A stretch of 64,000 nucleotides of DNA, taken from positions 1,059,185 through 1,123,184 of the forward strand of contig JBMNFF010000001.1 in the NCBI GenBank assembly GCA_050949165.1. The letters run 5' to 3'. Source of the stretch: Bacillota bacterium (lineage in GTDB: Bacteria > Bacillota > Proteinivoracia > UBA4975). Positions 2,478 to 58,976 of the stretch are shown in pieces (the first letter of the stretch is position 1; every line of letters starts with the position of its first letter). The position numbers were made by a program, and so were the translations under genes. The notes under the pieces were generated by a model that saw only the letters and a program-made list of their open reading frames with translations, ran no database searches and had not been told where the DNA came from.

Positions 2478-3650
2478 CTAAATCAGTTTCATTTCCCGGC
2501 CGACCCTGCCGAAGACATCCAGGGCAAAGTCCAGGTCTTCCCTGCTGTGGGCAGCCGAGAGCATAACCCTGATCCTCGCCTTGCCGTGGGGAACCAGGGG
2601 GAAGCCGATGCTGGTGGCAAAGATGCCCTCTTCAAACAGGCGCTTGCTGAATTCCGAAGCATCCCGGGCATCGCCGATCATCACCGGGGTGATGGGGGTT
2701 TCGGTGACGCCGGTGTCATAGCCCAGTCCCTGCAGGCCCTCCTTAAAGATCCGGGCGTTTTCCCAAAGCCTTTCCACCAATTCGCCGCTCTCCTGGAGGA
2801 TGCGCACTGCCTCCAGAGTAGCGGCAGTATCGGGCACCGTCAGGGCAGAGCTGAAGGTAAAGGGCCGGGCCTTCTGTTTGATATACTCCACTATTTCGGC
2901 GCTGCCCGCTATGCAGCCGCCCATGACGCCCAGAGCCTTGGAAAATGTGCCAATTTCCACATCCACCTGGCCGTGAAGGCCAAAGTGGTCGACGATGCCG
3001 CGGCCAGAGCGGCCCAGGACGCCTTCGCCGTGGGCATCGTCCACATAGGTCATGGCGCCGTACCTTTTCGCCAGCTCGACCATTTCCGGCAATTTGGCGA
3101 TGTCTCCGTCCATGCTGAAGACGCCGTCGGAGATCACCAGTACCCGTCCCTCCAGGTCCTCCTTAAGGACTCTTTCCAGACCTTCCATATCGTTGTGGGG
3201 ATAGACCTTGATTTGGGCCCTGCTCAAGCGGGCGCCGTCGATGATGCTGGCGTGGTTGAGCTCGTCGCTGACTATGGTATCGCCCTTGCCCACCAGGGCG
3301 GGAATTGCGCAGAGGTTGGCATTAAAACCGGACTGAACCGTCAGGCAAGCCTCCACACCCTTAAATTCCGCCAGTTCCCGCTCCAGCTCTTCGTGGATGG
3401 ACATGGTGCCGGCGATGGTGCGCACGGCGCCTGGCCCTACTCCGTACTTGTCGATGGCGGCCTTGGCTGCCTCCCGGATCCGCTCATGGGCGGCGAAGCC
3501 CAGGTAGTTGTTGGAGCAGAAGTTCAGAACTTTCCTGCCGCCAATCTGCACCCAGGCGCCCTGGGCGCTCTCGATGGTGCGGATGTTTTTGTACAGTCCC
3601 TTTTCCTTCAGTTCCTCCAGTTCCGGCTTGATAAAATCCAAAGTTCCCAT
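2478..3650 (-). CDS. kbl: glycine C-acetyltransferase (2-amino-3-ketobutyrate CoA ligase)
   Basis: 390 aa; alignable by eye to Kbl along whole length ([32 protein letters not shown]). Confidence 0.9.
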
Positions 3651-3668
3651 ACTATCTCCCTTCCCTCT

Positions 3669-4694
3669 TTATGGATATAAGATGATTTTGCCGCTATTGC
3701 CACTGATGGCCAGGGCAAAGGCCTCTTCAAACTCCTCAAATTTAAAGCGATGGGTAATCAGGGGTGTCAAATCCAGCCCTGCCCGGAGCAGGGCCTGCAT
3801 CTGGTACCATGTCTCATACATCCTGCGCCCATTGATGCCGTATACCTTGGCGCCCTTGAAGATAATCCCGTCGGCCAGGTCAATTTCCACCGGTTTTGAC
3901 GGCAATCCCAAGAGGGCGGCCCAACCTCCCTTGCGCAGAGCCCGAAAACCTTCGTTGATGGCCGGGGCCGTCCCCGCCATCTCCAGGAGCACATCCACGC
4001 CCAGGCCCTCGGTCTCTTCCAGAATCCGGGCCACCACATCGTCCCTGCCCACTTTGAAAACCCTGTCCGCCCCCAGCTTGAGGGCCAGATCCAGACGATA
4101 ATCATTGAGGTCGCTGGCATAAACCCTCGTGGCGCCTGCCTTTTTGGCGATGGCCGCCGCCGCTACGCCGATGGGACCGCAACCGGTGATGAGCACCGTC
4201 TTGCCCGTGATGGTGTCGGCCAGGGCGGTGTGCACGGCGTTGCCAAAGGGGTCGTGGATGGCGGCAACCTCGGTGGGAATGTCCTCATCCAACACCCAGA
4301 TGTTGCTGCGGGGCACCCGCACGTACTCGGCAAAGCAGCCGTCGGTATCCACGCCGATGATCTCCACATCCTGGCAGATATGGGCCTGACCGGTGCGGCA
4401 GAAATAACACTTGCCGCAGACAAAATGGCCCTCGGCGCTGACCCGGGTCCCCAGGGCCAGGTCTTCAACCCCTTCCCCCAAGGCCGCCACCTCGCCGCAG
4501 AACTCATGGCCGAAGACCAGGGGAGGCTTTATCCGCCCCGCCGCCCAGGGGTCCCAACTGTAAATATGCACATCTGTGCCGCAGATGGCGGCGGCGGTGA
4601 CCTTTACCAATACCTCTCCGCGCCGGGGTATGGGGACAGGAACCTGCTCCAGTCGAGCGCCCGCCTCCGGGGCATGCTTGACCAGAGCCTTCAT
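3669..4694 (-). CDS. tdh: L-threonine 3-dehydrogenase
   Basis: Zn-dependent ADH fold, MKALVK N-terminus and AAICGTDVHIY motif as in Tdh; start may instead be TTG at 4706 (RBS GAGGAGTGG) or the ORF-track GTG at 4736. Confidence 0.85.
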   Translation of the reverse strand: MKALVKHAPEAGARLEQVPVPIPRRGEVLVKVTAAAICGTDVHIYSWDPWAAGRIKPPLVFGHEFCGEVAALGEGVEDLALGTRVSAEGHFVCGKCYFCRTGQAHICQDVEIIGVDTDGCFAEYVRVPRSNIWVLDEDIPTEVAAIHDPFGNAVHTALADTITGKTVLITGCGPIGVAAAAIAKKAGATRVYASDLNDYRLDLALKLGADRVFKVGRDDVVARILEETEGLGVDVLLEMAGTAPAINEGFRALRKGGWAALLGLPSKPVEIDLADGIIFKGAKVYGINGRRMYETWYQMQALLRAGLDLTPLITHRFKFEEFEEAFALAISGNSGKIILYP

Positions 4695-16171: not shown

Positions 16172-16482
16172 TAAAACTTACCTCCAAAAATGATGTAGCT
16201 TGTAAAGCTCGATTCATCCTACCATAGTAAAAAGGCCAATGTCAATTTTACCGAAAAAACTGTCAATGAAGTCCGACAGCTGACCTGGTCTTTGCCCCCA
16301 CACTCGCCTGCTGGAGGGTTCGCGCTAACTACTGCCTCTCTCGGTTTTCCCGGCAGGACTTACTTCTAAGCCGCACCATGCTCGGCAGTTGGTTTTTTTT
16401 GCTGCCTTACGTGGGTCGTTTCGCCTGCGACTGGCCTCGACTTTCAACCACAGACCTGTCAGACATCATTAGAGTAACGTAT

Positions 16483-20914: not shown

Positions 20915-22105
20915 TTATTCTTCCAGTCCTGCCTCCCGGCGCAGCACCTCGGCCTTGTCGGTCTTTTCCCAGGGCAGGTCCAAGTCGGTGCGGCCCATGT
21001 GGCCGTACGCAGCGACCTGCCGGTAGATGGGGCGGCGCAGGTTCATGTCCCGGATGATGCCGCCGGTGCTGAGGTCAAAGTGCTTGGCAATCAGCTCTTC
21101 TATCTTGGCATTGGGCACCTTGCCGGTGCCGAAGGTCTCCACGCTGATGGAAACCGGCTGGGCCACGCCAATGGCATAGGCCAACTGCACTTCGCACTTG
21201 TCGGCCAGGCCGGCGGCCACCACATTCTTGGCAACCCAGCGGGCAGCATAGGCCCCGGAGCGGTCCACCTTGGTGGGGTCCTTGCCCGAGAAGGCGCCGC
21301 CGCCGTGGCGGGAATAGCCGCCGTAAGTATCCACGATGATCTTGCGCCCGGTGAGTCCGGCATCCCCCTGGGGTCCTCCCACCACAAAGCGGCCGGTGGG
21401 GTTTATGTAGTACTTGGTCCCGGCATCCAGGAGGTCGGCGGGGATGGACTTCTTGACCACTTCTTCGATGATCTCCTCCCGCAGCCGCTCCAAGGGAATA
21501 TCCGGCTTGTGCTGGGCCGAAACCACCACGGTGTGGACCCGGGCAGGCTTGCCGTCGATATATTCCACGGTGACCTGGGTCTTGCCGTCGGGACGAAGGT
21601 AAGGGAGAATCCGCTCCTTGCGCACCTCGGCCAGGCGCCGGGCCATGGTATGGGCCAAGGCGATGGGCATGGGCATCAATTCCGGGGTCTCAGCGCAGGC
21701 AAAGCCGAACATCATCCCCTGATCCCCTGCCCCCACCTGCTCGCCGTCTTTCTGCTCCCTGGCCTCCAGGGCTGTATCCACCCCCAGGGCGATGTCCGGG
21801 GACTGCTCGTCGATGGCAGTGAGGACGGCGCAGGTATCCCCGTCAAAGCCGTACTTGGCCCGGGTGTATCCGATTTTGCGCACTGTGTCCCGGACCAGGG
21901 AGGGGATGTCCACATAGCACTCGGTGGTAATCTCTCCCGTCACCAGGACCAGGCCGGTGGTGACCATGGTCTCGGCGGCTACCCGGGCATAGGGGTCGGC
22001 TTCTAGTATCGCATCTAAGATGGCATCGGATATCTGATCGGCGACCTTGTCGGGATGGCCCTCGGTAACTGATTCGGAAGTAAACAAGAACCTGTCAGCT
22101 TTCAA
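20915..22105 (-). CDS. metK: S-adenosylmethionine synthetase
   Basis: [19 protein letters not shown] and other MetK motifs; start moved to TTG at 22105 ([11 protein letters not shown]) preceded by GGAGGTG. Confidence 0.95.
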
Positions 22106-22144
22106 TTCCAACACCTCCACAAATATTCTGCTCAAACTGGCAAC

Positions 22145-22266
22145 AAAAAACCCCTTCAGGTTTGAAAGGGTTCGTCACCCCTCATCTGCGGGAATTGGCA
22201 CCGTGCCCCGTGGCCGGTTGCCGGGTTTCATCGGGCCCGCCCCTCCACCTCTCTCGATAAGAGCTC
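22145..22266 (-). ncRNA. SAM-I (S-box) riboswitch with intrinsic terminator, leader of metK
   Basis: minus-strand sequence CTCTTATCGAGAGAGGTGGAGGGGCGGGCCCGATGAAACCCGGCAACC...GGTGCCAATTCC...GCAGA matches S-box consensus; followed by hairpin and TTTTTT. Confidence 0.85.
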
Positions 22267-46174: not shown

Positions 46175-46412
46175 CTCATGGGATTACTGGTAAAATATAT
46201 TGAAGAGGTGTGATAAAAATGCCTAATCGAAGAAAACCCCTGGGACAAAGCCAGGGAAAACACCCTTGCCAAGCCCCAGGGGACAAGCAATGCGCGGATA
46301 TTACGATTTAAGCACCCAATCCACCCTTATTTATTATTTTCTTCACATGGTCCACTCCGCCAATATGTGGTATATTACCAGTAATATTTTAAGTCATAGG
46401 GAGTTGCATGAT

Positions 46413-47182
<770 letters not shown>

Positions 47183-47186
<4 letters not shown>

Positions 47187-49036
47187 AAATTCAGGCGCCC
47201 CCTCCCCTGACCCAAGCTCCGCCCCCCCGCGGCTTCTGGCAGGATTTTCGCCTCCTCGCCGCCACCCAGTTGCGCCTGACCTGGAACAAGCTCAGGCATT
47301 GGCCGGCCAAGATCTGGATTCTCATCATCATATCCAGCCTGGGCTTTCTGGGAATGCTGACGGGTTTAGGATTTTTGGCCTTCGGCGCCTTTGCCCAACT
47401 CTCGCCTGACACCGCCCAAGGCTTTTTGTCCCTGCTCTTTATGGTTGGCGTTGCCGCCGAGATGTTCTTCGGCATTACCGCGGCCTTCACCACCCTGTAC
47501 ATGTCCGAGGATCTGGAGTTGCTCTTCGTAGCCCCCATCTCCACCCGGGCGGTATTTGCCGTAAAAACCTTGGTGATAGCCTTCAGCAACCTCCTGGCCA
47601 CCACAGTCTTAATAGTCCTGCCCGGCCTTTTTTACGGCCTGCTCTTCAAGGCCTCCCTGGCCTTTTTCCTCTGGCTGCCGGTGATTGCCCTGGCCCTGCT
47701 GGCCATCGGCACCGCCCTGGCCGAGCTCTTAAACATGGTGGTCATGCGCATCGTCCCGCCCCACCGCAGCAAGGAAGCGGTAGGCGTCATCGGGGCTGTA
47801 TCGGGAATCCTCATCGCCATAGTCTTTCAAATTCCCAACCTGCTCCTGAGCAATCAGGCAAATATAAATCTGGACCAGTGGCTGGCCGCCCAGGAACAGC
47901 TGCTGCATGTCATGAACTACTTCCCCTGGGGGTGGAGCGCCCAGGCCCTGATTGAGGCCAGCGCAGGCCGATACTTGCCTGCCCTGGGCTGGACCCTGTT
48001 GGTCCTGGCCCTGGGAGCGGGAATCTTTACCCTGGCCTTCCTCCTGGTGGAGCGAGGCTTTCGCCGGGGTTGGATCTCCTTGAGCCAGGGTGGTGGTCGC
48101 CGCCGCAAGGACCGGCAAACTAAGGAGGAGCAAACCCAGGCCCGGAAAAGGCGCGGGGAAATCCCCGTCCTTCCCCAAACTCAGCCCTGGCCTCTGACCT
48201 CACCCTGGAACGGGATGTGGGCGGTGGCCAGGAAGGACCTGCTCTACATGAAGCGGGATACCAGGGAATGGTTCGGCTACCTGACCCCTCTCCTGTTGAT
48301 GTTCTTTTTCACCGCCCGGGTCCTCTTCTTTCCCGGGCCTGGCGCCGAGCAGAGCCTGGTTATGGTCCTGATTATGTACACCATCATGTTCAGCGGCAAC
48401 ATTGCCCTGCAATCCTTTGGCAGGGAAGGTGAATCGGACTGGCTCCTGAACAGCGTGCCCCTGGCCGGATGGCCGGTGGTGTGGGGCAAGCTCATAGGCT
48501 CCGTCTTGCCTACCCTGGTCCTGATGGAGGCGCTCCTCACCGGCACCGGCCTGGCCATAGGCCTTCCTCCCAACATCCTGGTGGCCATGGCCGTGGGGGC
48601 AGCCCTGATCTCGGTGGGCTCCAGCGCCATCGGTCTCTACTACTCGGTGAATAACTGCCGCTACAATCCCGACGCCCCCCAGCAGAGAATTGCCCCCGGC
48701 GCCACCCTGCTGATGTACCTGGTCAACCTCCTTTTCATCGGCGTGCTGGCACTTTGCCTGGTCTATACCTTCCCGCCCCAGGGATTGCTGGCCTTTGTCG
48801 GGGAACTGCCGCCGGCGCCCTTTGTCTGGGGATTCCCAGAAACCTTGATCTATTTACTTTTCCTCATCCTGGCTCCCTTGCGCTGGCCGCCTGCGGCGCG
48901 CATAGGCTTAGGCTTGCTCTTCACCTTGTCCCTCTGGCTGGCTGTGTTCTTCAGCTTCATGAAGGCCACCGTCCGGCAAAGCCTTAAGGGCCTAAGGGTA
49001 GAGCTGGTTACAAGCACAGGCAAGAAAAGGAAATAA
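47183..49036 (+). CDS. large polytopic membrane protein, putative ABC exporter permease
   Basis: 617 aa, about 12 TM helices with a basic cytoplasmic loop; GTG start overlaps ATPase stop. Confidence 0.55.
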
Positions 49037-49068
49037 AATAATAAAGACCGCCGCAGCGGTCTTTATTA

Positions 49069-49563
49069 TTATTCAACAATCCTGAAGGCCTTGGCGCCTG
49101 CTCCGCAAATGGGGCACTTGTCCACCGGGGCCAGCTCGATATTGCCGCACACCGTACACAGGTGGAAGGTCAGTTCTTCTTGGGAATCCAGGTTATCCAA
49201 AAGCCTCTGGTAGAGGCCGGCGTGGACCCGCTCGGCTTCCATGGCAAATCTGAAGGAGCGGGCAGCTTCCTTTTCCCCGGCTTCTTCGGCACGCTTGACC
49301 ATGTCGGGGTACATGCTCTCGTATTCATAGGTCTCGCCGGCCACACCTTCCTTGAGGTTCTCGGCGGTGCTCCCAATTCCCTTCATGGCCCGCAGATGAG
49401 AATGGGCATGTATTGTCTCTGCCTCGGCGGCAGCCCGGAACATTTTGGCGGCGTTCTTATACCCCTCCTGCTCCGCCTTGGCAGCAAAAGCCAAGTACTT
49501 GCGGTTTGCCTGGGCCTCTCCGGCAAAGGCCTCCTTTAAGTTCTGCAAAGTCTTCTCATCCAT
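49069..49563 (-). CDS. rubrerythrin (ferritin-like diiron domain plus C-terminal rubredoxin-like CxxC...CxxC)
   Basis: ExxH diiron motifs and CTVCGN...CPICG; start at MDEKTL with AAGGAGG RBS. Confidence 0.85.
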   Translation of the reverse strand: MDEKTLQNLKEAFAGEAQANRKYLAFAAKAEQEGYKNAAKMFRAAAEAETIHAHSHLRAMKGIGSTAENLKEGVAGETYEYESMYPDMVKRAEEAGEKEAARSFRFAMEAERVHAGLYQRLLDNLDSQEELTFHLCTVCGNIELAPVDKCPICGAGAKAFRIVE

Positions 49564-49581
49564 TATTGGCATCCTCCTTAT

Positions 49582-49596
49582 CAGTAATGATTACTG
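49582..49596. promoter_or_regulatory. 7-1-7 palindrome CAGTAAT-G-ATTACTG, Fur/PerR-family-like box
   Basis: perfect dyad immediately upstream of rubrerythrin RBS in divergent promoter region. Confidence 0.45.
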
Positions 49597-49677
49597 CTTA
49601 ACTATACACCATGGGCGCCCTGCTGTCAAGAAAATATCTTGCATGGCGCCGGCCAATTGGCTATGCTCTATTAAGAG

Positions 49678-50364
49678 GTGATTGCCGTGCACAAATGCCC
49701 CTGCAATAACACATGCGCGTCCCGGGTTCCTATCTTCCAGGGGCTCACTCCCCATGAGTTGGGCCGCTTCAACGATATCCTCACCACCAGAGAATATCCC
49801 GATAGCGAGATAATATACACCCAGGACAGTCCAGCCCAGGTTCTCTGTATCGTCAATTCGGGAGCGGTCAAGCTGTTTAAGACCTCTCCCGAAGGCAAGG
49901 AACAGGTCCTGCGCATCCTGAGTCCCGGGGATTTCTTCGGGGAAGCGGTGCTCTTCAGCCAGCAAACCCGGACCAGCTCGGCCCAGGCCCTGGGCCCCAC
50001 CAAGATCTGCCAGTTGGACAAGTCCCAGGCCGAAGAGATCATCCAGCGCCATCCGGAAATCGCCCGCAAGCTCATTGCCGCCCTCAACCTCCGCCTCGCC
50101 CAGGCCGAGGAGCAGATAGAATACCTGGGGACCCGCACCACCCTGCAGCGGGTGGCCCGCCTGGTGGTGGACCTGGCCCGGGAGCAAGGGGACAAAATCG
50201 TCACCCTCCCCCTGAGCCGGGAGGGCCTGGCCAGCCTCACCGGCATGACGGTGGAAAACTTCAGCCGCAAACTCAGCGAGCTCACCGAGCAGGGACTGAT
50301 CACTCCCCAAGGGCGCAGAAAGTTAGTTATAAAGGACTTGGAGAGCTTGGAGAAGCTGACATAA
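49678..50364 (+). CDS. Crp/Fnr-family transcriptional regulator
   Basis: N-terminal Cys cluster (CPCNNTC), cNMP-binding-like fold, C-terminal HTH (REGLASLTGMTVENFSRKL). Confidence 0.8.
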   Translation: MIAVHKCPCNNTCASRVPIFQGLTPHELGRFNDILTTREYPDSEIIYTQDSPAQVLCIVNSGAVKLFKTSPEGKEQVLRILSPGDFFGEAVLFSQQTRTSSAQALGPTKICQLDKSQAEEIIQRHPEIARKLIAALNLRLAQAEEQIEYLGTRTTLQRVARLVVDLAREQGDKIVTLPLSREGLASLTGMTVENFSRKLSELTEQGLITPQGRRKLVIKDLESLEKLT

Positions 50365-50403
50365 AAAAAGAACAGGTCAATCTTCTAAGGATTGGCCTGT
50401 TCT

Positions 50404-51399
50404 TTAATTGCTGAGTTCCGCCCTAAGCTGCAAGACCTCAGATATGGGAAGCTCAGACACTTGCGCCACTTGCTCAGGAGTAAATCCCAGCCGGAGCGCA
50501 TTTCTGGCTGCTAGTCTCTTTGCCTCCAGAATCCCTTCAGCCCTGCCCTCTGCCCTGCCTTCTGCCCTGCCTTCAACCCGGTACTTCTGCCAGGTTTCCT
50601 GCAAGATTCGTTCAAAATTAGTTATCAATGATTTTCCCCCCTTCCTTCTCAAATGGATCAGGACTCGATCACGGTCGTGTTTCTCCATTCCCTTTAAGAG
50701 TACCTTACCTGTCCACCTAGAAAAACGCCGTACATCTTCTTCCGGCATCTGATCCAAGACTGCAGCAAGCTCACCGATTCCAAACAGCACCTCATCCATC
50801 CCTCTGTGTTGCTCCATATAGAAGACACTACCCATCAAATTGCCCAGGGCAAGCAGCTGGCCCTTGCCATATCTATTTACATCAACGAGGATGTATTTAA
50901 AATCTAATGCGTATTTGCTAAAGAACTGAAATCCTGCCTGACATTGGCTAAAGCTTGTCCCCGCCGTCCATTTGCCTTTCCCATTGTATAGCACGCACGG
51001 GACAATAACCGGCAGAGCGAAACTCCCTTTACAGGCAACCTCATTGAACCAATAATTGCGCCAGATTTCCACCATATACATCAATAAACGAAAGGGCATC
51101 ATTTGATCGACGGTAGATTGCAATTCCAGCAAGAGATAGAAGTATACATCTTGCTCGGCCAAACGAAGCCTGTAGATCAGATCGGCCTCTTGGTGCCGAA
51201 AGTCCTGTAGTATAAAGGATTTTGGAATAAGCATTACGTCTTTCGCCTGAATGCCCTTGACCCACTCTGCCTTAACAAAGGTCTGCAAGAATTGCAGAAA
51301 GGTCGACTTATTGGCCAGCAAATACTTGTACCCCGTATCATGCTTATTGCTGGGGACCGCATATTCCTGGTCTGGCTCCCTAACCAAGGCTAAGGACAT
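50404..51399 (-). CDS. Rpn-family (YhgA-like, PD-(D/E)XK) recombination-promoting nuclease / putative transposase
   Basis: N-terminal HDxxYKxL and nuclease core pattern, C-terminal repeat-containing domain (EGRA x3-4 then LGFTPEQVA...LP) as in E. coli Rpn proteins; start moved to MSLALV at 51399. Confidence 0.7.
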   Translation of the reverse strand: MSLALVREPDQEYAVPSNKHDTGYKYLLANKSTFLQFLQTFVKAEWVKGIQAKDVMLIPKSFILQDFRHQEADLIYRLRLAEQDVYFYLLLELQSTVDQMMPFRLLMYMVEIWRNYWFNEVACKGSFALPVIVPCVLYNGKGKWTAGTSFSQCQAGFQFFSKYALDFKYILVDVNRYGKGQLLALGNLMGSVFYMEQHRGMDEVLFGIGELAAVLDQMPEEDVRRFSRWTGKVLLKGMEKHDRDRVLIHLRRKGGKSLITNFERILQETWQKYRVEGRAEGRAEGRAEGILEAKRLAARNALRLGFTPEQVAQVSELPISEVLQLRAELSN

Positions 51400-51524
51400 A
51401 GTAGCCGCCGCCTTAATAATAATGTTAGCACAGTTTCCAATAATATAATATAGGAACACGTGTTCCCTGTCTAGCTTATCTTTTCTCTGATGGTAGCAGA
51501 AATAGAGTCTCCAATTAAGCGGGT

Positions 51525-51773
51525 GGGGCTGTCGCAAAATGAGATATTCGTACATATTCTCCCGAAAATCTCTCCGGGTAGGGGCCGAAAGTATAAAGAA
51601 GGAGCTGTCGCAAAACTAAATCTCCGCGCATATTACCTCAAGAAAATCTCTGTGGGTGGGGGCCAAAAGATCCCCCTATAAAGGTAATCCAATGTAGGGG
51701 CGGGTTTTCCCGCCCGACTCACAAGAATGGCTAATTGGGGAATATGGCGGATTGCCAGTTTTGCGACAGCCCC
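51525..51773. mobile_element. MITE-like element bounded by inverted GGGGCTGTCGCAAAA(T/C) termini, with internal partial duplication
   Basis: left terminus 51525-51541, internal direct copy 51601-51616, inverted right terminus 51758-51773; no ORF. Confidence 0.55.
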
Positions 51774-51779
51774 TTGCTT

Positions 51780-53702
51780 TTACGCCAAGGCCTTTTCTAT
51801 TTCCGCCATGGCCCTTTCCTCCAGGTCGCAGCATTGCCGGACCAAGGCGAGGACCGCCGGAGCCTTGCCAGGGTCAAAGGCCTGGCCCCCGGGCCCGGTA
51901 AAGGGGACCAAGCGGGTTATCTCCTGGTAATTCGCTGCCACCTGGCGGTAGAGGTCAATTGTACCCTCCAGGCCCTTTAGTTCACCGGACCGGGCGGCAA
52001 CATACTCCAGGTATTTGGCGATGCAGGCCTTGGAGTCAGCATAGACGTTGAGATTATAGGCCAGGCCGAAGGGGTCGTAATCTCCCCGTTCCAAAGTGCT
52101 TATGAGATTGGCATAGGCCTTTCTGCCGCAGGCATACCCGGGAGTCGAGTGCTGCTCTTTATTCCACTCCCTCAAGCCGTATTCCAGGGAATCCCGATAG
52201 ATCTTCTCCGGGTCGACCTCCACCCTGCCCTTGAGAATCTGCACAAACAGGTATGGAACCTCGGATATGCCCAGGTTGCCATAGCTCAAGGGATCCGGAT
52301 CTGAGTTGAGGCAATCTTGAACAAACAAAACTTCATCGCCGTCATCATAACCGTCAATCAGGCCAAATTCCAGGAGACCTGTCGGCGCCCAGGTGATCGC
52401 CGGCACCCCCCTGGCTATGGATGCTTTGATCTTTGCCAGGGCATCCTCCTGAATCATATGGAAAGTGTTGAGCCTGGGGTCCCTGAAGACCAGGACTATT
52501 TCGCTGTGCACGCCAATCCTGTCCAGCATGGTGAAATGCTCCATCCCCCAGTCGTACACCGTCACCGAGCTGGGGCAGGCCGTTTCGTGCACGATGAAGT
52601 GAAAGGCCATCCCCGTCATGCCCATGAGTTTATAGATCTCGTCCTGCCACCACTCCACCTTGCGCAAAGCGCCGTCCACGCTGGCGATATATGAGTTCCA
52701 GGTCATTCCCATCTTCGCACCCAGTCGCATTGCCGCATCAGTACCTCCTTTAACAGGTTGTGGCTCCATTATAATCGACGGGGTAGGACATAAAGTGTCG
52801 CACCCCTCAGGCATATTTGCCAAAATCATCTTTTGTAGCCTGGAACAGAAGCGCTGCCGTAACCAGCGGGGTGAAAGAAGGGTAAATTGTTCTACCCCGG
52901 CTATAATTGCCGCCAGAAATTTGCTGGAATTTGTGAATTCCACTCTGTAGACCTGAGGCTCTCCAGAGGGAGATACCCGCAGCCCCGCCTTTCTCAACTG
53001 ATTCTCCCCCTGGGTTTTTACAAGGGCCACATAAGGCCTGCGGTAGTTAAAGTCATCTTTATATTCCTCCGGATCAAACCAGGGAACGATGGTAAACTCC
53101 TCGTCCCGAACCAGGGCGCCTCTTATCCGCTCCAGTTTAAAGATGCGGACCTCCCCGCGGAGTTCACAATACCCGACCACATAATTGCCATCCCCCTGAC
53201 AGAAGAATTTATAGGGGCAGATGATCCTGCGGGATTTTACCCCCGCGGCGCTGACATACTCTATCTCAACTTTATGCCTCGATTGCATGGCTTTGCTGAG
53301 GAGCTTATATGCCCTGACCTCCCGGGGACCGGGATTGATAATTGGTAAATTCCTCTCGCCTTCGCAGTTTCCTTCCCCGCCCAAGCGGGCAAAGAGTTGG
53401 GCCAACTGCCGGGCCTGTCCACCTTCCCTGTTTCGGTAGTGGAAGGCCAGGTAATCCAGGGTGGCCTTTTCTTCTGCCGAAATAAAATTGGCCGGCAGGA
53501 TAAAAGCTCCCCCTCGGTAAAAATACCCGTTGTTCCTGGGACAATATGCAACGGGCGCCCCCAGGGAGTAGCGCAAGTACTCAATATCCCGGGAAGCCTG
53601 GCGGGTAGAAATCTCAAATTCCTCGGCAATAATTCGGCAATTGGGATACCTGCCATGGCGAATCTGCTGGTCAATCCAGAGTATCCTGTGTAAGCTGCTC
53701 AT
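51780..53702 (-). CDS. HTH-WYL domain regulator fused to about 340-aa uncharacterised C-terminal domain
   Basis: N-terminal HTH (NCRIIAEEFEISTRQASRDIEYL), WYL-type beta domain (RRIICPYKFFCQGDGNYVVGYCELRGEVRIFKLERI), continuous 640-aa ORF; ATG with GGGGGTGA RBS. Confidence 0.65.
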   Translation of the reverse strand: MSSLHRILWIDQQIRHGRYPNCRIIAEEFEISTRQASRDIEYLRYSLGAPVAYCPRNNGYFYRGGAFILPANFISAEEKATLDYLAFHYRNREGGQARQLAQLFARLGGEGNCEGERNLPIINPGPREVRAYKLLSKAMQSRHKVEIEYVSAAGVKSRRIICPYKFFCQGDGNYVVGYCELRGEVRIFKLERIRGALVRDEEFTIVPWFDPEEYKDDFNYRRPYVALVKTQGENQLRKAGLRVSPSGEPQVYRVEFTNSSKFLAAIIAGVEQFTLLSPRWLRQRFCSRLQKMILANMPEGCDTLCPTPSIIMEPQPVKGGTDAAMRLGAKMGMTWNSYIASVDGALRKVEWWQDEIYKLMGMTGMAFHFIVHETACPSSVTVYDWGMEHFTMLDRIGVHSEIVLVFRDPRLNTFHMIQEDALAKIKASIARGVPAITWAPTGLLEFGLIDGYDDGDEVLFVQDCLNSDPDPLSYGNLGISEVPYLFVQILKGRVEVDPEKIYRDSLEYGLREWNKEQHSTPGYACGRKAYANLISTLERGDYDPFGLAYNLNVYADSKACIAKYLEYVAARSGELKGLEGTIDLYRQVAANYQEITRLVPFTGPGGQAFDPGKAPAVLALVRQCCDLEERAMAEIEKALA

Positions 53703-53941
53703 GTTTCACCCCCAGGGAAATGATAGACGTCCCTGCACTGTTCTCAGCCTTCTCCTGCCCGGACAAAGGGCCGGCTGCCAAAGAACAGTTCTGCGCGGGC
53801 GCATCCCAACCTCGGCTCCCCGACCGCTTTTTCCCAGTATAGCATCTGAAAAAATAAATTTCTAATTTGATTTTTATCATGTTTTCCCTTTTCTGGCTCC
53901 TCCATAATGAAGACAGAACAAAGGTGAAGGAGTGTTGAAGG

Positions 53942-54178
53942 ATGAAAAAAATTACCTTGTTAGGAGTTGAAGGGTGCCCCACCTGCGCCCGCCTGGATGC
54001 AAAGGTTCAGGAGGCCGTGGCCGCCCTGGCCGCCCCGGTAGAGGTGGAGAAGATCGCCGATCCCGCGAAAATAATGGAAATCAATGCCGGCGGTCTGCCC
54101 GCCGTGCTCGTCGACGGGGAAGTCAAGGCCCTGCGCCGGGTCCCGGAAGTAAAGGAGCTGGTAGAATGGCTGCAGTAA
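53942..54178 (+). CDS. thioredoxin-fold small redox protein (CPTC active-site motif)
   Basis: 78 aa, GCPTC motif near N-terminus typical of glutaredoxin/thioredoxin-like proteins. Confidence 0.6.
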   Translation: MKKITLLGVEGCPTCARLDAKVQEAVAALAAPVEVEKIADPAKIMEINAGGLPAVLVDGEVKALRRVPEVKELVEWLQ

Positions 54179-54399
54179 AGGTAACCGCCCGTCTGGAACA
54201 ACTGTCCTGCCCCAGCTGCGCCGACATGATTGTCAATGTAGTCCGGAAAATCAAGGGCGTAGAGGAAGCGGAAGTACGCTACACCACCAGCAAGCTGCTG
54301 GTCACCTATGACGACGCTGTTGTAGCCTGGGATGAAATAGAAGATACCGTGACCAAGCTGGGTTACGCCGTTACCGGCAAGAGCGAGAGGAGGGATTAG
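54166..54399 (+). CDS. heavy-metal-associated (HMA) domain metallochaperone
   Basis: 77 aa from MAAVKV; CPSC metal-binding motif in ferredoxin-like fold context; AAGGAG RBS. Confidence 0.65.
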   Translation: MAAVKVTARLEQLSCPSCADMIVNVVRKIKGVEEAEVRYTTSKLLVTYDDAVVAWDEIEDTVTKLGYAVTGKSERRD

Positions 54400-54400
54400 C

Positions 54401-56287
54401 ATGGCCGTGGCCACAAACCGCATGCCCAAGCCCACCGGCCTTTGGCTGAGGAAAAATGAAAAGTTCCTGATACTGCTGGTTTCCGGCGCCCTCATCATCC
54501 TGGGCTGGCTGGCGGGATACCTCTCTCCCCAAGCCAGGGCCATCCTCATGGTGGCTGCGGCAATTGTGGCCGGCTACCGCATCGCCCAGACTGCCTGGTA
54601 CGCCCTCCGGGCCCGGGTGGTCAGCATCCAGCTCCTGGTCACCATCGCCGCCGTGGGTGGAGTCCTCATCGGCGACCAGTGGGAAGCCGCCGCCGTCACC
54701 TTCCTCTTTGCCCTGGGCAACTACCTGGAAGCCCGGACCCTGAACAAGACCCGGGATGCCATTCAGCAGCTCATGAGCATGGCCCCGGCCACAGCCGTGG
54801 TCCTCCGGGACGGCCGGGAAGTGGAGGTAGACCCCGATGAAGTTCGGAAGGGAGAGATCGTCCTGGCCCGCTCCGGGACCAAAATCCCCGTAGACGGCAT
54901 CGTCGTCAAGGGCAGCGCCTCGGTCAACCAGGCCGCCATCACCGGCGAGTCGGTGCCGGTGGAGCTCACCCCAGGCGGCCAGGTCTTCAGCAGCACCCTG
55001 GTGGAGGCTGGCTACCTGGAGATCCAAGCCCAGCGCGTGGGCGAGGACACCACCTTCGCCCGCATCCTCCACATGGTGGAAGAAGCCCAGGAGCGCAAGG
55101 CCCCCACCCAGAAGTTCATCGAGAAGTTTGCCCGCTGGTACACCCCTGCCATCATTGGCCTGGCCATTGTCACAGGCCTCGTCACCGGCAACCTGCACAT
55201 GGCTCTGACCCTCTTGGTCATCGGCTGCCCCGGCGCCCTGGTCATCTCCACCCCCATCTCCATGGTGGCCGGCATCGGCAACGCCGCCAAGAACGGCGTC
55301 CTGGTCAAGGGCGGCGAATTCCTGGAAAAGGCCGGCAAAGTCACCCTGGTGGCCTTTGACAAGACCGGCACCCTCACAGTGGGCCGACCCGAGGTCACCG
55401 CCGTCCTGGCCCTGGTGGGCAGCCAAGAAGATCTGCTCCGCCAGGTGGCGGCAGTGGAGAAGGGCTCGGAGCATCACATCGGCCGGGCCATAGTGCGCCG
55501 GGCCGAAAACCTGACCCTGCCCCAGGCCTCAGGCATCGAGGTCTTCCCCGGCGGCGGCATCTCCGGCCGGGTAGAGGCTGAAGAAATCCTGGTGGGCAAT
55601 CCCCGCCTCCTGGCCGAGAGGGGCGTCGGCCTGCCGGAACAGGTCCAGGATTGGATGGCTACCCGGGAGGAGCGGGGCGAAACGGCAGTGCCGGTGGCCG
55701 TCGACGGCCAGGTTCGCGGAGCAATTGCCATCGCCGATACCCTGCGCCCCGAGGCCAGAGAAGCAATCGCCGTCCTGCGCCGGTCCGGCAAAAAGGTGGT
55801 AATGCTGACGGGGGATAATCCCCGCACCGCCGCGACAATTGCCGCCGAACTGGGCCTGGACGACGTCAAGGCCAATCTCCTGCCCCAGGACAAGGTCAAG
55901 GCCATTCAAGACTACCGCCGCCAGGGCCACATGGTGGCCATGGTGGGAGACGGCATCAATGACACCCCCGCCCTGGCCGAGGCAGACCTGGGCGTAGCCA
56001 TGGGAGCTGCCGGCACCGATGCCGCCATCGAGACCGCCGACCTCACCCTGATGAGCGATAACCTCAACCGGCTGGTCCGGGCCCTGCACCTGGGCAAAGC
56101 CACCCTGAGCAATATCCGCCAGAACGTCGCCTTCGCCGTGGCAGTGGTCCTCCTCCTGGTCCTGGGCGTCCTGGGCCAGAAGGTCTTCTTGGCCACAGGT
56201 ATGCTGGCCCACGAAGCCAGCGTCATGCTGGTCATCCTCAACGCCATGCGGCTGCGAGTGTGGAAGCCCAAAAAGAACCCGCGTTAA
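54401..56287 (+). CDS. heavy-metal translocating P1B-type ATPase
   Basis: DKTGTLT phosphorylation motif, GDGINDTPAL, TGES actuator motif; TM6 motif reads CPG rather than CPC; no N-terminal HMA domain. Confidence 0.9.
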   Translation: MAVATNRMPKPTGLWLRKNEKFLILLVSGALIILGWLAGYLSPQARAILMVAAAIVAGYRIAQTAWYALRARVVSIQLLVTIAAVGGVLIGDQWEAAAVTFLFALGNYLEARTLNKTRDAIQQLMSMAPATAVVLRDGREVEVDPDEVRKGEIVLARSGTKIPVDGIVVKGSASVNQAAITGESVPVELTPGGQVFSSTLVEAGYLEIQAQRVGEDTTFARILHMVEEAQERKAPTQKFIEKFARWYTPAIIGLAIVTGLVTGNLHMALTLLVIGCPGALVISTPISMVAGIGNAAKNGVLVKGGEFLEKAGKVTLVAFDKTGTLTVGRPEVTAVLALVGSQEDLLRQVAAVEKGSEHHIGRAIVRRAENLTLPQASGIEVFPGGGISGRVEAEEILVGNPRLLAERGVGLPEQVQDWMATREERGETAVPVAVDGQVRGAIAIADTLRPEAREAIAVLRRSGKKVVMLTGDNPRTAATIAAELGLDDVKANLLPQDKVKAIQDYRRQGHMVAMVGDGINDTPALAEADLGVAMGAAGTDAAIETADLTLMSDNLNRLVRALHLGKATLSNIRQNVAFAVAVVLLLVLGVLGQKVFLATGMLAHEASVMLVILNAMRLRVWKPKKNPR

Positions 56288-56307
56288 GAGCCGCGGGTTC
56301 TTTGCTT
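56273..56307 (+). terminator. intrinsic terminator after P1B-ATPase
   Basis: aagaacccgcg-ttaagagc-cgcgggttctt hairpin followed by TTTGCTT. Confidence 0.7.
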
Positions 56308-56582
56308 ATGGGATAACCCGCTTCCTTCTACATGCTAAGAATAATGACGCCCTGCATGGTGAAAATAGCCTGACGGGTTGACATCCCACCAGCGACGGCA
56401 TGCCAACGGGTAGAGAATGACTATACTCATTCCCGGACCGAACTGCCACCCGCGCCGCTGCGTCACATTTATTGAGCAGAAGCCAGCTGACCTGTTACCC
56501 GTTTGCCAAGCCGATGCATTACCTTGGTAAACCTCTATATAAATATATTAAAATAACTTATTAAAGAAATTAAGGTAAGGGC

Positions 56583-56611
56583 TTGCAAAATAAAATTGAA
56601 CCCTGTATAAT
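56583..56611 (+). promoter_or_regulatory. sigma-70-type promoter TTGCAA-N17-TATAAT with AT-rich upstream tract
   Basis: -35 at 56583-56588, -10 at 56606-56611, AT-rich UP-like region 56530-56580. Confidence 0.6.
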
Positions 56612-56664
56612 TATGGCGGAAGGTAGCGGACATACCAGCGAGACGAAATAAGGAGGTGAATTCC

Positions 56665-56766
56665 ATGAAAGAAACCTTCCCCTATCGCCCCACCGGCCTC
56701 TCCACCGGCAAGGGCAAACCCCCAACCCGTCCCCCCTTTCCCATCCAACTGCTTCCACCCCGGTAA
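56665..56766 (+). CDS. small peptide, 33 aa (MKETFPYRPTGLSTGKGKPPTRPPFPIQLLPPR)
   Basis: ATG 7 nt after AAGGAGGTG; paralogous to next ORF; below ORF-track size cutoff. Confidence 0.5.
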   Translation: MKETFPYRPTGLSTGKGKPPTRPPFPIQLLPPR

Positions 56767-56793
56767 ACCAAAGCCATAAAAGGAGGTAAAACC

Positions 56794-56886
56794 ATGAACA
56801 GAACTTTCCCCTATCTGTCCACCGGCCTTTCCAGCAAGAGGAATCCGGCGCCGCGGCCAGTTAATCTGCCCCCGCGTCACTGCTAA
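56794..56886 (+). CDS. small peptide, 30 aa (MNRTFPYLSTGLSSKRNPAPRPVNLPPRHC)
   Basis: ATG 8 nt after AAAGGAGG; shares TFPY-xx-TGLS and LPPR with preceding ORF. Confidence 0.5.
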   Translation: MNRTFPYLSTGLSSKRNPAPRPVNLPPRHC

Positions 56887-56909
56887 AAACCCACTGGGAG
56901 GTGAATTCA

Positions 56910-56972
56910 ATGAAAAGAAAAGTTGCCGTCCGCATCCGCCACGACGTCGCCTTGCCGGGAAAGATGCGCTGA
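56910..56972 (+). CDS. small basic ORF, 20 aa (MKRKVAVRIRHDVALPGKMR)
   Basis: ATG 6 nt after GGGAGGTG; unrelated in sequence to the two preceding peptides. Confidence 0.3.
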   Translation: MKRKVAVRIRHDVALPGKMR

Positions 56973-57147
56973 TGAAAACACGCGGAAACATGGTTATCGG
57001 CACCGCAAGACACCGCAATACAGGATAAACGGGCTGTTCCCCGGTAAGGGAAGAGCCCGTTTGCGTTATATAAAAAGCGTGGCCTTGTCCCCCCGAGGCG
57101 ATAACAGATATAATTAACACAAGCGATTTTAAGAAGGAGGAAGAAAA

Positions 57148-57873
57148 ATGAAGAATACCGGTCTCGAGTTCCTGGAGCTGACCAAATACCCTCACCTCAG
57201 CGAGTCGGATCAGGAAAAGGACCTGCCCTGCCCCCAGTTGGAGACCCCGGAGAGCGGTGAACAGATAGACCTGCCTGGCCCCGAGAGCATCAGCCTCGCC
57301 GAAATCAGCATTCAGACGGCCATCAACAACCGGCGCAGCCTGCGCAAATTCAGCACCACTCCGCTGAGCATGGAAGAGCTGTCCTGGCTGCTCTGGGCCA
57401 CCCAGGGGGTCAAGGAAAAGCTGTCCCATGCCACCTTGCGCACCGTCCCCTCGGCGGGAGCCCGCCACCCCTTTGATACATACCTGGCAGTGGCCAATGT
57501 CTCCGGCTTGAAGCCCGGCCTCTACCGCTACCTGGCCCTGACCCACAAACTGGTCCTGATCAGGGAAGACAGTCAAATCGGGGAGAAAGTGGCAACTGCC
57601 TGCATCAAGCAGAAGTGGATTGCCAAGGCGGCGGCGACCTTTTTCTGGGCAGCCGTTCCCTACCGCACCACCTGGCGTTACAGCGAGCGGGGCTGGCGCT
57701 ACATCTTCCTGGATGCCGGCCACATCTGCCAGAACCTCTACCTGGCCTGCGAGGCCGTCGCCGCCGGCTGTTGTGCCGTCGACGCCTTCGACGACGACGC
57801 CCTCAACCAACTGCTGGGCCTGGACGGCAAAGAGCGGTTTGTTCTCTATGCCGCGCCTGTGGGCCATAAATAA
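57148..57873 (+). CDS. SagB-type dehydrogenase (nitroreductase-fold FMN enzyme)
   Basis: RRSLRKF, LLWATQG, PSAGARHP, GLYRY, RYSERGWRYIFLDAGHICQNLYLA, LGLDG motifs; ATG with AAGGAGG RBS. Confidence 0.7.
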   Translation: MKNTGLEFLELTKYPHLSESDQEKDLPCPQLETPESGEQIDLPGPESISLAEISIQTAINNRRSLRKFSTTPLSMEELSWLLWATQGVKEKLSHATLRTVPSAGARHPFDTYLAVANVSGLKPGLYRYLALTHKLVLIREDSQIGEKVATACIKQKWIAKAAATFFWAAVPYRTTWRYSERGWRYIFLDAGHICQNLYLACEAVAAGCCAVDAFDDDALNQLLGLDGKERFVLYAAPVGHK

Positions 57874-57876
57874 AAC

Positions 57877-57908
57877 GCAAAAACCTGCGGGTGACCGCAG
57901 GTTTTTGC
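57877..57908. terminator. bidirectional intrinsic terminator
   Basis: gcaaaaacctgcgg-gtga-ccgcaggtttttgc, 14-bp perfect stem flanked by A-run and T-run. Confidence 0.8.
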
Positions 57909-58316
57909 GTGGGTGTTATTTGCGCTTATTTTCCGGATTATGAGTCCGGACCGGGGAAGCTGCCCGCTACAGGGCCCGGTCTGACGATCTCAGTGCATGG
58001 CGCCATTAGAGGCTGTCCGGACTTGATTCCTGTCACCCGAAACCAATCCCGACCCAAGCACCTGGGCTCCCGATCTGCTACGCCACAGCCGCGCATAAGC
58101 TGGCGACACAGCAATACCGGGTAACCCGTCCTCATCACCCCTGCTTCCAAAATAGTTTCATTTACTATGATGCCCTAAAATGGAAAAGAGTTCAACCCCC
58201 GGCAGGATTTTTTTTCTGCTCCCCGTACAATATTATACGCGGAAAACCCATAGTTTTCAGGGGTTGAAGGCCAAATATTTTATTTTTTTCTAAAGCATGA
58301 AGAGTTTAAATGGATA

Positions 58317-58805
58317 TTACCTTCTCTTCAAATACAGGGCCAGGCCTCCGACCACAGCCAATACCGCCAGACCGCCTGCCGCCCAGATGAATGCCCCATT
58401 GGAATTGGAAATAGGCGCCGCCTCAATCGGTTCGGCATCATCCAGCTCTACATCCAGGTCCTCGGCGCCGGACAGGATTGTAAAGATGGGGTTCTCCGCC
58501 TGGGCATCGGCCTCGGCCTGGACCAGCTGCTGATATTCTTCCTCCCCCAGGATGACCTCCCGGGGCACATCGACATGGACGGTAACCGACTGGTCGTCCT
58601 TGACCAGGACGATGTTGAAGACCTCCCGGCCCAGAGCGACAAAATCCTGGACCCAGCTTTCCGAAACCTCGTAGCCGGGATATTCCTCCAGGGCCAGCCC
58701 ATGCAGGCGATTCTGCACCTCTTCGGGCAATATCCGCAAGACGGCGGAGGCTGGGGCGACGGCCAGCACCAGGATAATAGCGGTAAGAACCAACAAGCGT
58801 TTCAT
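58317..58805 (-). CDS. secreted protein with N-terminal signal peptide and C-terminal hydrophobic anchor plus KRR tail
   Basis: start MKRLLVLTAIIL with GAAGGAGG RBS; acidic central region; C-terminus ...GGLAVLAVVGGLALYLKRR. Confidence 0.6.
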   Translation of the reverse strand: MKRLLVLTAIILVLAVAPASAVLRILPEEVQNRLHGLALEEYPGYEVSESWVQDFVALGREVFNIVLVKDDQSVTVHVDVPREVILGEEEYQQLVQAEADAQAENPIFTILSGAEDLDVELDDAEPIEAAPISNSNGAFIWAAGGLAVLAVVGGLALYLKRR

Positions 58806-58875
58806 GTTTTTTCCTCCTTCACGCCAGTTTACAATAGGACGCCGAAGCCGGGCAATTGGTTCATTCATAAAGAAC

Positions 58876-58976
58876 GGGGCTGCCGCAAAATGTCCCCCTG
58901 TCATATTGGAAAGCCCGCCCTGCCGGGAATGTCCCGCAGCGGGCAATATGCAGAGATATCATTTTGCGACAGCCCC
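58876..58976. mobile_element. MITE-like element, second copy (GGGGCTGCCGCAAAATG ... CATTTTGCGACAGCCCC)
   Basis: 17-bp inverted termini at 58876-58892 and 58960-58976; same terminal motif as 51525-51773. Confidence 0.5.

Follow-up and report, generated by a model that had tools for sequence, protein, structure and literature searches.

A cassette of small basic peptides beside a stand-alone SagB/ThcOx-type dehydrogenase gene in uncultured Bacillota

Peptide-modifying flavoenzymes that do not depend on a YcaO partner have recently been described in two systems. In the tiarins, to which trifolitoxin belongs, a pair of flavin mononucleotide (FMN) dehydrogenases, TfxB and TfxC, which carry recognition elements (RREs) for peptides synthesized ribosomally and modified post-translationally (RiPPs), is encoded within about 2.7 kb; the precursor core contains a conserved Gln, and YcaO is only an accessory (preprint 10.64898/2025.12.02.691738). 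In a Pseudomonas RiPP, the fusion protein PflD joins a multinuclear non-heme iron-dependent oxidase (MNIO) to a nitroreductase domain that makes Z-dehydro-Phe without YcaO, and the operon also encodes an HEXXH enzyme, a GNAT protein, transporters, and a long precursor with a leader (PMC12636437). Here, we analyze a locus in a 64-kb stretch of Bacillota DNA (contig JBMNFF010000001.1; hereafter the window, in whose numbering all positions are given), where three very short open reading frames (ORFs) precede a gene for a 241-amino acid SagB-type dehydrogenase. The initial annotation of this DNA had stated that no such RiPP architecture was described, a statement that is outdated since the YcaO-independent tiarin TfxB/TfxC and PflD enzymes were described in 2025.

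Tandem short peptide genes are familiar as well. The psm-alpha locus of Staphylococcus aureus and the four-peptide leaderless bacteriocin aureocin A70 consist of tandem paralogous ORFs of 20–35 amino acids, each with its own ribosome-binding site and no leader. Their products are amphipathic, helical and hydrophobic, and they are accompanied by dedicated ABC exporters or immunity genes.

Our preferred reading, which we hold with about even confidence, is that the locus consists of two adjacent, co-oriented and separately transcribed units and that the peptides act independently of the enzyme. Unit A (about 56530–57066) would be driven by a strong sigma-70-type promoter and would comprise three ORFs with near-perfect Shine–Dalgarno (SD) sequences, encoding two paralogous peptides of 30–33 amino acids (the FPY family) and a basic peptide of 20 amino acids (the RIRHD peptide), with an intrinsic terminator ending the transcript. 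Unit B (57085–57910) would be a monocistronic gene for a SagB/ThcOx-type FMN oxidoreductase, bounded by a promoter of its own and by a bidirectional terminator, and the enzyme's job would be independent of the peptides. The adjacency of the enzyme gene and the cassette would then be inherited synteny.

Conservation and properties of the peptide cassette

The promoter, the ORFs of 33, 30 and 20 amino acids, the 241-amino acid gene and the flanking terminators that the initial annotation had listed are all present where it placed them. The cassette promoter (56529–56611, + strand) comprises an AT-rich, UP-like tract and the predicted TTGCAA-N17-TATAAT site, whose hexamers span 56583–56611 and match the consensus at 10 of 12 positions in a promoter scan; the AT-rich tract was likewise confirmed, the GC content ahead of the promoter being 0.45–0.46. 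Small ORF 1 (56665–56766, + strand; 33 amino acids, MKETFPYRPTGLSTGKGKPPTRPPFPIQLLPPR) and small ORF 2 (56794–56886, + strand; 30 amino acids, MNRTFPYLSTGLSSKRNPAPRPVNLPPRHC) encode peptides of the FPY family and are preceded by the SD sequences AAGGAGGTGA and AAGGAGGTAA, located 8 and 7 nt before the ATG, respectively. Small ORF 3 (56910–56972, + strand; 20 amino acids, MKRKVAVRIRHDVALPGKMR) encodes the RIRHD peptide and is the last gene of the cassette in every species. The AGGAGG-type ribosome-binding sites proposed earlier were found as GGAGG 7–8 nt before the ATG of all three ORFs.

Comparison with other assemblies shows a cassette that, judged by its sequence, is common to four species. 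In each, a promoter is followed by two to five tandem genes for basic peptides, a gene for a RIRHD peptide of 20–30 amino acids, and a terminator. In the three further species, represented by contigs L024, L023 and L014, the cassette lies directly 5′ of, and co-oriented with, a SagB-type gene whose product is 66–75% identical to that of the window. The tandem peptides of L024 (enzyme 74–75% identical; an ATPase gene further 5′) are MSKTFPWISFGLSNKKPVPRPVCPPHLFLPR and MHKLFPYLPAQSRNISPASRPHLNFPIRSW, and the closing peptide is MKKESVAVRIRHDVALPGKKR. L023 (68%; a divergent histidine kinase and response regulator further 5′) has three tandem peptides, MSKHFPYIFTDKKKPTPKPQTTPYWLITRSM, MKNCFPYIQPEKRPPDNPPTPYFMPRYR and MKDNVYPYIYSDKKAPATKTEIKIPWPLIRA, closed by MKKKVSTRIRHDAELPGKRI. 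L014 (66–67%; an ATPase gene further 5′) has five copies of the MRRIPRKDEPRFKPEANIAWITRRIW type, encoded in a 119-bp array of 4.8 copies, and the closing peptide MTKKVTTRIRHDVSLTNKAKGGNGMMHLAS.

An identical arrangement occurs in the same-species contigs L001–L006 and L021. The three small peptides of L021 are the same as those of the window; its enzyme homologue (P0019, at 3501–4217; 92% with 78% coverage) aligns oddly from apparent frameshifts in a low-coverage (2.7×) assembly. Within the species, only three variable positions were seen in all, located in the promoter or in the 5′ leader upstream of ORF 1, a comparison of low power.

Could these short ORFs be untranslated chance ORFs in a spacer or in a noncoding RNA? 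They are absent from protein databases and almost never called by gene callers (in nine cassette-bearing contigs, the only call was one extended, 51-amino acid version in L024), which would suit such an explanation. On the other hand, GGAGG stands 6–9 nt before the start codon in 15 of 15 small ORFs from the four species; the entire + strand of the window has just 18 GGAGG-N6–9-start sites, four of which fall within 56652–57136. A far weightier argument against chance is that three other species repeat the complete arrangement. Furthermore, the codons of two paralogous copies in L014 (B1 and B2) show 8 synonymous and 0 non-synonymous differences. The motifs are also kept while the codons vary: in ORF 3, residues V5, R8, I9, R10, H11, D12, L15 and K18 are invariant (alignment A10), and the LPGK codons vary synonymously between species. 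The cassette DNA of the four loci has no match in Rfam. There is no excess of RNA structure, the folding of the whole transcript being unremarkable (z = −0.8), by which a structured noncoding RNA was rejected. Chance ORFs are, in our judgment, extremely improbable. The small ORFs thus appear to be genuine, as the initial annotation had proposed, and the substitution pattern shows selection at the peptide level. The FPY and RIRHD peptides are predicted to constitute a new family of small cationic peptides that is lineage-restricted, translated and under selection.

The peptides of ORF 1 and ORF 2 are paralogous (51% identity). Homologues of ORF 1 are present in L024 and L023, and ORF 2 is clearly homologous to the L024 peptide MSKTFPWISFGLSNKKPVPRPVCPPHLFLPR (score 75, shuffle z = 10.2). 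For the peptides of L014, the link to the FPY family is only moderate and goes via L023 (z = 2.4–3.4; alignment A4). At the DNA level, three parts are conserved between species, namely the promoter with its AT-rich tract, which is alignable between species (alignment A2), the start of ORF 3 together with the terminator, and a noncoding block ~150 nt 5′ of the cassette promoter.

This block (56405–56480, no strand assigned) runs in the relatives from a TATA-like box through CCGAAC to CATCTCACT-N3-TTGTGCGG. Its counterparts lie at ~2765–2830 in L024, ~2425–2500 in L014 and ~2555–2640 in L023, and it is present even with a different upstream gene (L023). No conserved ORF or RNA structure was found in it in the four-species alignment. 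The block is probably the left boundary of the conserved module and might act as an operator or as a second module promoter.

What might such peptides do? All of the cassette peptides have a net charge of +3 to +7, a pI of 9.5–12 and a negative grand average of hydropathy (−0.2 to −1.4). They are rich in Pro (up to 28%), Lys and Arg and contain 0–1 Cys, and the FPY peptides are hydrophilic and lack a signal or transmembrane segment. Most likely, they would be small proteins, abundant inside the cell, that bind a polyanion (for example RNA, the ribosome or DNA), with a leaderless secreted cationic peptide as the second candidate. Polyanion binding is favored because genes for export, processing or immunity are missing from the module and because the peptides are all strongly cationic. 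We infer that they would act alone, unmodified by the enzyme.

None of the 10 peptides searched matched Pfam or NCBIfam at E ≤ 10, and the PDB sequences returned chance-level matches only (E at least 1.4). A peptide-profile search of 5.8 billion proteins recovered only the 51-amino acid call of L024 itself, an accidental gene call. Resemblance to the N-terminus of the ribosomal protein bL34, to SpeFL and to MgtL was considered and rejected, as there was no similarity beyond composition. Among the DNA patterns, the degenerate TFPY..TGLS pattern had 0 matches in genome and metagenome contig collections, the ORF 3 pattern had 2 chance matches in eukaryote-like JGI contigs, the SD-plus-ORF 3 pattern had 0 matches in 100,044 species genomes, and the RIRHD..LPGK pattern had 0 matches in viral contigs. 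Because each degenerate pattern would match only 2–3 of the variants known, which number 4, and because the scanned collections do not include the source species itself, these results show that the cassette is rare, rather than absent, elsewhere. Every known instance is from an ENA, Logan or JGI assembly of uncultured Bacillota.

Predicted promoters and terminators of the two putative units

The initial annotation had read the small ORFs and the enzyme gene as a single operon and had overlooked two signals that lie between them. A stable hairpin with an A-tract on its 5′ side and a U-rich tail on its 3′ side, the predicted intrinsic terminator of the small-peptide transcript, is located at 57027–57062 (+ strand), between ORF 3 and the enzyme gene (ΔG −27.7 kcal/mol, z = −4.9). 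In each of the four cassette species, ORF 3 is followed by such a hairpin (ΔG between −22 and −28 kcal/mol, z between −4.3 and −4.9). The promoter scan also found a promoter-like TTGTCC-N18-TATAAT at 57085–57114 (+ strand), which would be the SagB-type gene's own promoter and has equivalents in L024 and L023. The TTGCAA-N17-TATAAT of the cassette promoter recurs in L023 and L024 too, and its counterpart in L014, missed by the scan, is TTGCAT-N17-TATAAT.

The separation between the two units is also apparent in relatives that lack the cassette. When the window is compared with contigs L007 and L008, which are cassette-free and encode an enzyme 86% identical, nucleotide homology starts at 57083, at the enzyme promoter, which is retained in both; further 5′, the sequences are unrelated. 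Downstream of this promoter, the enzyme gene (57148–57873, + strand) is monocistronic and is followed by a bidirectional intrinsic terminator (57875–57910, no strand assigned) with a 16-bp stem detected on both strands (ΔG −31.6 kcal/mol, z = −6.5). These signals show, at the level of sequence, the boundaries of the two putative units. Given the terminator after ORF 3 and the separate enzyme promoter, the small ORFs probably form one transcription unit and the enzyme gene another, rather than both lying in one operon; some read-through may occur.

Could the small ORFs serve as a cis-regulatory leader, in which translated sensor or arrest peptides, ORF 3 in particular, control termination at 57027–57062 and, hence, read-through into the enzyme gene? 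The order of promoter, short ORFs, terminator and gene is that of such a leader, and ORF 3 is conserved at the amino acid level, as arrest peptides are. However, the terminator helix is the only conserved RNA structure from ORF 3 to the enzyme gene in the four species; RNAalifold found no conserved antiterminator or alternative pairing overlapping the leader ORF, and a transcription attenuator was rejected on this ground. The structure of the transcript, as given above, is not unusual, no leader was matched in Rfam, and the stop codon of ORF 3 lies 30–57 nt before the hairpin. Moreover, the enzyme gene's own conserved promoter would work without a leader in the relatives, and two to five tandem selected peptide genes would be unnecessary for this kind of control. 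We consider a cis-regulatory leader very improbable.

The enzyme with and without the cassette

The 241-amino acid protein matches TIGR03605 (SagB family peptide dehydrogenase) with 142.5 bits against a cutoff of 78.4, over 172 of 173 model positions, and consists of a single PF00881 domain (E = 2.6e-30). Its AlphaFold2 model is compact and single-domain (predicted local distance difference test score 93.4), with a short N-terminal extension common to the whole family. The best PDB neighbors in Foldseek are ThcOx (query-normalized template-modeling score, TMq, 0.82) and BmdC, then BF3017, 3EO7 and McbC. Since ThcOx, BmdC and McbC come ahead of proteins of the NfsA/NfsB type, the enzyme falls outside the group of ordinary NAD(P)H nitroreductases, and the SagB-type assignment of the initial annotation holds in both the hidden Markov model (HMM) and the predicted fold. 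The catalytic pair of McbC is Lys201-Tyr202 (PMC6395948). In the phmmer alignment, W176-R177-Y178 of the window enzyme aligns with the "KY" of BmdC and CyaGox/ThcOx, so that the Tyr remains but Arg takes the place of the Lys; 33 homologues all share this WRY motif.

This family has very many members, most of them stand-alone. Of 8000 candidates scored, 7805 reach E ≤ 1e-5, and among the best 120 almost every protein is 237–265 amino acids long with PF00881 alone; in a library of representatives at 50% identity, 801 matches reached E ≤ 1e-30, and 6986 reached E ≤ 1e-10. This exact protein already bears the name "SagB/ThcOx family dehydrogenase" in NCBI and JGI records, in a metagenome-assembled genome of an uncultured Bacillota. 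The enzyme is an ordinary member of a very large stand-alone SagB/ThcOx family and is not novel in itself. N-acyl-Tyr desaturases of the TyzC type were also considered and set aside as an analogy only, as they belong to a different nitroreductase subgroup.

As the initial annotation had noted, partner enzymes are missing. Among the 30 window ORFs of at least 250 amino acids, 8 of which have no Pfam match at E ≤ 1e-5, none has a YcaO, radical-SAM, lanthipeptide or ThiF domain, and none of these domains is listed for the genes that lie within ±4 kb in six contigs. There is no second copy of the enzyme in the window; tblastn with the 241-amino acid protein finds itself, and the next match has E = 0.23. 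No RRE turned up on the enzyme, judged from its single PF00881 domain and compact model and not from a dedicated RRE search.

Is the enzyme specifically paired with the peptides, as had been proposed? The genomic contexts of its homologues argue otherwise. In L009 (74% identical) and in L007 and L008 (86%), the space upstream of the enzyme gene is just 155–200 bp (155 bp in L009) and contains neither small ORFs nor a cassette. For homologues that are 62–71% identical, an ABC_tran_2 gene precedes and a Crp-type regulator follows the enzyme gene, and those at 54–61% lie in unrelated contexts, in both cases without small ORFs. Adjacent short ORFs are, thus, lacking in close orthologues as well as in more distant homologues, which is one of the observations that the initial annotation had named as refuting its proposal; a specific pairing is not supported. 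In the tree, the cassette-bearing enzymes (window, L024, L023 and L014) are interspersed with cassette-free ones (L007 and L009), which implies that an ancestral cassette was lost repeatedly while the enzyme remained intact. These comparisons show that the predicted enzyme persists without the cassette. No alignment column is specific to the cassette-bearing enzymes, and co-evolution of enzyme and cassette was rejected for this reason. The cassette was also considered as a mobile element, and the comparison of L023 with L009 gave no usable boundary repeats.

Could the tandem peptides be the substrates of a SagB-type flavoenzyme that acts without a YcaO partner, as a RiPP-like pair? Co-expression would come about via the separate promoters or terminator read-through, and the chemistry could be Cα/Cβ dehydrogenation of the aromatic residue in F-P-[YW] or oxidation of the prolyl ring; by analogy with PflD, aromatic-residue dehydrogenation would be the most plausible. 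Several observations speak for such a pair and weigh against our preferred reading. The cassette is always immediately 5′ of, and co-oriented with, the SagB-type gene, in all four species and in two upstream contexts (ATPase operon and histidine kinase), with several diversifying precursor-like genes beside a single enzyme gene. The enzyme scores above the SagB HMM cutoff, its nearest folds are peptide or peptidyl azoline oxidases, and its WRY motif has, where the peptide azoline oxidases carry their catalytic K-Y pair, the conserved Tyr together with a basic residue. YcaO-independent precedents exist in the tiarins and in PflD, where a nitroreductase domain dehydrogenates a peptide Phe, and the peptides carry a conserved F-P-[YW]. 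To these are added that every cassette found adjoins the enzyme gene, though only four species are known; that the U-rich tails of the terminators are only moderate, such that some transcripts may read through into the enzyme gene; and that there is no positive evidence for a function of the peptides.

On the other hand, a conserved terminator and a separate promoter stand between the peptides and the enzyme, and sister lineages, like many further stand-alone relatives, retain the unchanged enzyme while lacking the cassette; no residues are cassette-specific. It is a single 241-amino acid domain on which no RRE or extra domain turned up, and its score against TIGR04511 ("putative peptide maturation dehydrogenase") is 110.5 bits, below the cutoff of 240. 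The peptides have no leader/core organization, no protease or exporter is present, and in L014 the FPY motif is lost from the peptides with the genomic position kept. The adjacency itself is explicable by inheritance because the gap from the terminator to the enzyme start is only about 85–120 bp. A RiPP-like pair is, in our view, rather unlikely, and enzyme–substrate coupling in general is doubtful. That the FPY and RIRHD peptides are the natural substrates in a minimal one-enzyme RiPP, in which very short leaderless peptides would be dehydrogenated without YcaO, is likewise unlikely.

A further way to link the two would be non-covalent. The peptides might be protein-level partners of the flavoenzyme or of its pathway, or might regulate either, for example by binding the acidic N-terminal region of the enzyme. 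This would be consistent with the adjacency kept in four species and with the charges, as the peptides are strongly cationic and the N-terminal 50 residues of the enzyme are acidic-rich. However, that region is equally conserved in the cassette-free relatives, no co-variation was seen, and the explanation is purely inferential. We regard it as quite improbable and retain independent action of the peptides as the preferred reading.

Genomic neighborhood and comparison with known systems

Upstream of the conserved module, the P-type ATPase gene ends in a terminator (56272–56303, + strand) that has a 12-bp hairpin stem followed by UUUGCUUAU (z = −3.6) and overlaps the ATPase stop codon. The other neighbors of the window enzyme gene, an ABC importer dependent on a substrate-binding protein and a hypothetical membrane protein, also occur in cassette-free loci. 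Comparison of 46266–56287 with contigs L012, L022 and L025 indicates that the SagB-type gene stays in one neighborhood with a differing gene order; shared are genes for ABC_tran/ABC_tran_2, thioredoxin-like, HMA metallochaperone and P-type ATPase proteins. In loci of the L012 type, the enzyme gene comes directly after ABC_tran_2 and before the Crp gene. A Crp-type regulator is found in L012, L022 and L025, and the window has a rubrerythrin-like ORF (49069–49572, − strand). This neighborhood hints at a redox or metal-stress role of the enzyme.

Between the ABC genes and the ATPase operon, at the site where the relatives have the SagB-type gene, the window carries a YhgA-like transposase gene (PF04754; 50407–51555, − strand) and a gene for a 640-amino acid WYL-domain protein (51783–53702, − strand). 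The GC content of the ATPase operon is 0.65–0.69 versus 0.45–0.55 in the flanks. The transposase and WYL-domain genes at this site and this GC content suggest rearrangement or acquisition.

Downstream of the enzyme gene, the region 57914–58865, which includes part of an ORF at 58317–58946 (− strand) for a hypothetical protein of 209 amino acids that has a signal-like segment at its N-terminus and matches nothing in Pfam, is absent in L007 and L008 and present in L009, L023 and L024; it does not track the cassette. The L023 contig (ENA ERZ24908655, NODE_25, 41.5 kb) is associated with a second homologue, P0025 (61% identical), whose longest contig has the same length (41,514 bp) as that of P0015, and this genome may carry two SagB-type copies on one contig. 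Elsewhere in the window, a full-length raiA RNA motif (RF03072), a structured RNA typical of Bacillota and Actinomycetota, lies at 16271–16464 (− strand; 182 bits versus a gathering score of 101). A SAM-I riboswitch (RF00162, 71 bits) lies at 22179–22263 (− strand), directly 5′ of the S-adenosylmethionine synthetase gene (20918–22135, − strand).

The new element of this locus is the peptide cassette, a strongly signaled, putatively polycistronic operon for cationic, Pro-rich peptides of 20–33 amino acids, which is maintained across species whose enzymes are only about 66% identical, under purifying selection and with change in copy number. It is a concrete case of the "dark" small proteins of uncultured Bacillota that gene callers miss. 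If the peptides were substrates or partners of the enzyme, the locus would be a minimal YcaO-independent system and would offer the first functional handle on a very large orphan family of stand-alone SagB-like proteins with hundreds of sequence clusters. If they are not coupled, the locus warns that short ORFs next to a "RiPP-type" enzyme are, taken alone, weak evidence.

How does the locus compare with known peptide systems? Like psm-alpha and aureocin A70, the cassette consists of tandem, SD-led, leaderless ORFs, with lengths that fall within 20–45 amino acids, which vary in copy number and are prone to be missed in annotation; unlike them, its peptides are Pro-rich and hydrophilic, and the conserved module has no exporter or immunity genes. 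The animal proline-rich antimicrobial peptides (oncocin, apidaecin and Bac7) are similar in size, cationic charge and P-x-P-R-P-like motifs. Kinship with them was considered and rejected, as the likeness is one of composition only (shuffle z at most 2.2), and no pro-region or export route is evident.

The tiarins share with this locus a SagB-like dehydrogenase gene with strong-SD short genes immediately 5′ of it. In contrast to them, the window locus has one dehydrogenase, on which no extra domain turned up, and the peptides differ from tiarin precursors in that ORF 2 is without Gln and alignment A4 has no conserved Gln column. PflD offers the parallel of a nitroreductase-fold domain acting without YcaO on an aromatic residue of a peptide, and the peptides here carry the conserved F-P-[YW]; the fusion, the HEXXH/GNAT/transporter operon and the long leader-bearing precursor of PflD are not present at this locus.

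Finally, the enzyme shares the HMM family, the fold and the catalytic-position Tyr with the SagB/McbC/ThcOx azoline dehydrogenases of linear azol(in)e-containing peptides/thiazole–oxazole-modified microcins (LAP/TOMM) and cyanobactins and with BmdC, an oxidase of nonribosomal peptide synthesis. It differs from the azoline dehydrogenases in having no YcaO or E1-like partner in the 64 kb, in being monocistronic and in having Arg for the catalytic Lys, and the neighboring peptides, unlike those of azoline dehydrogenase loci, are not rich in Cys, Ser or Thr. From the stand-alone or tandem SagB/ThcOx proteins, which are single-domain, about 240–260 amino acids long and very widespread, it shows no substantive difference. 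Its best sequence match in the PDB is 3EO7 of Anabaena variabilis (E = 9e-38), a stand-alone SagB/ThcOx protein with the same WRY motif.

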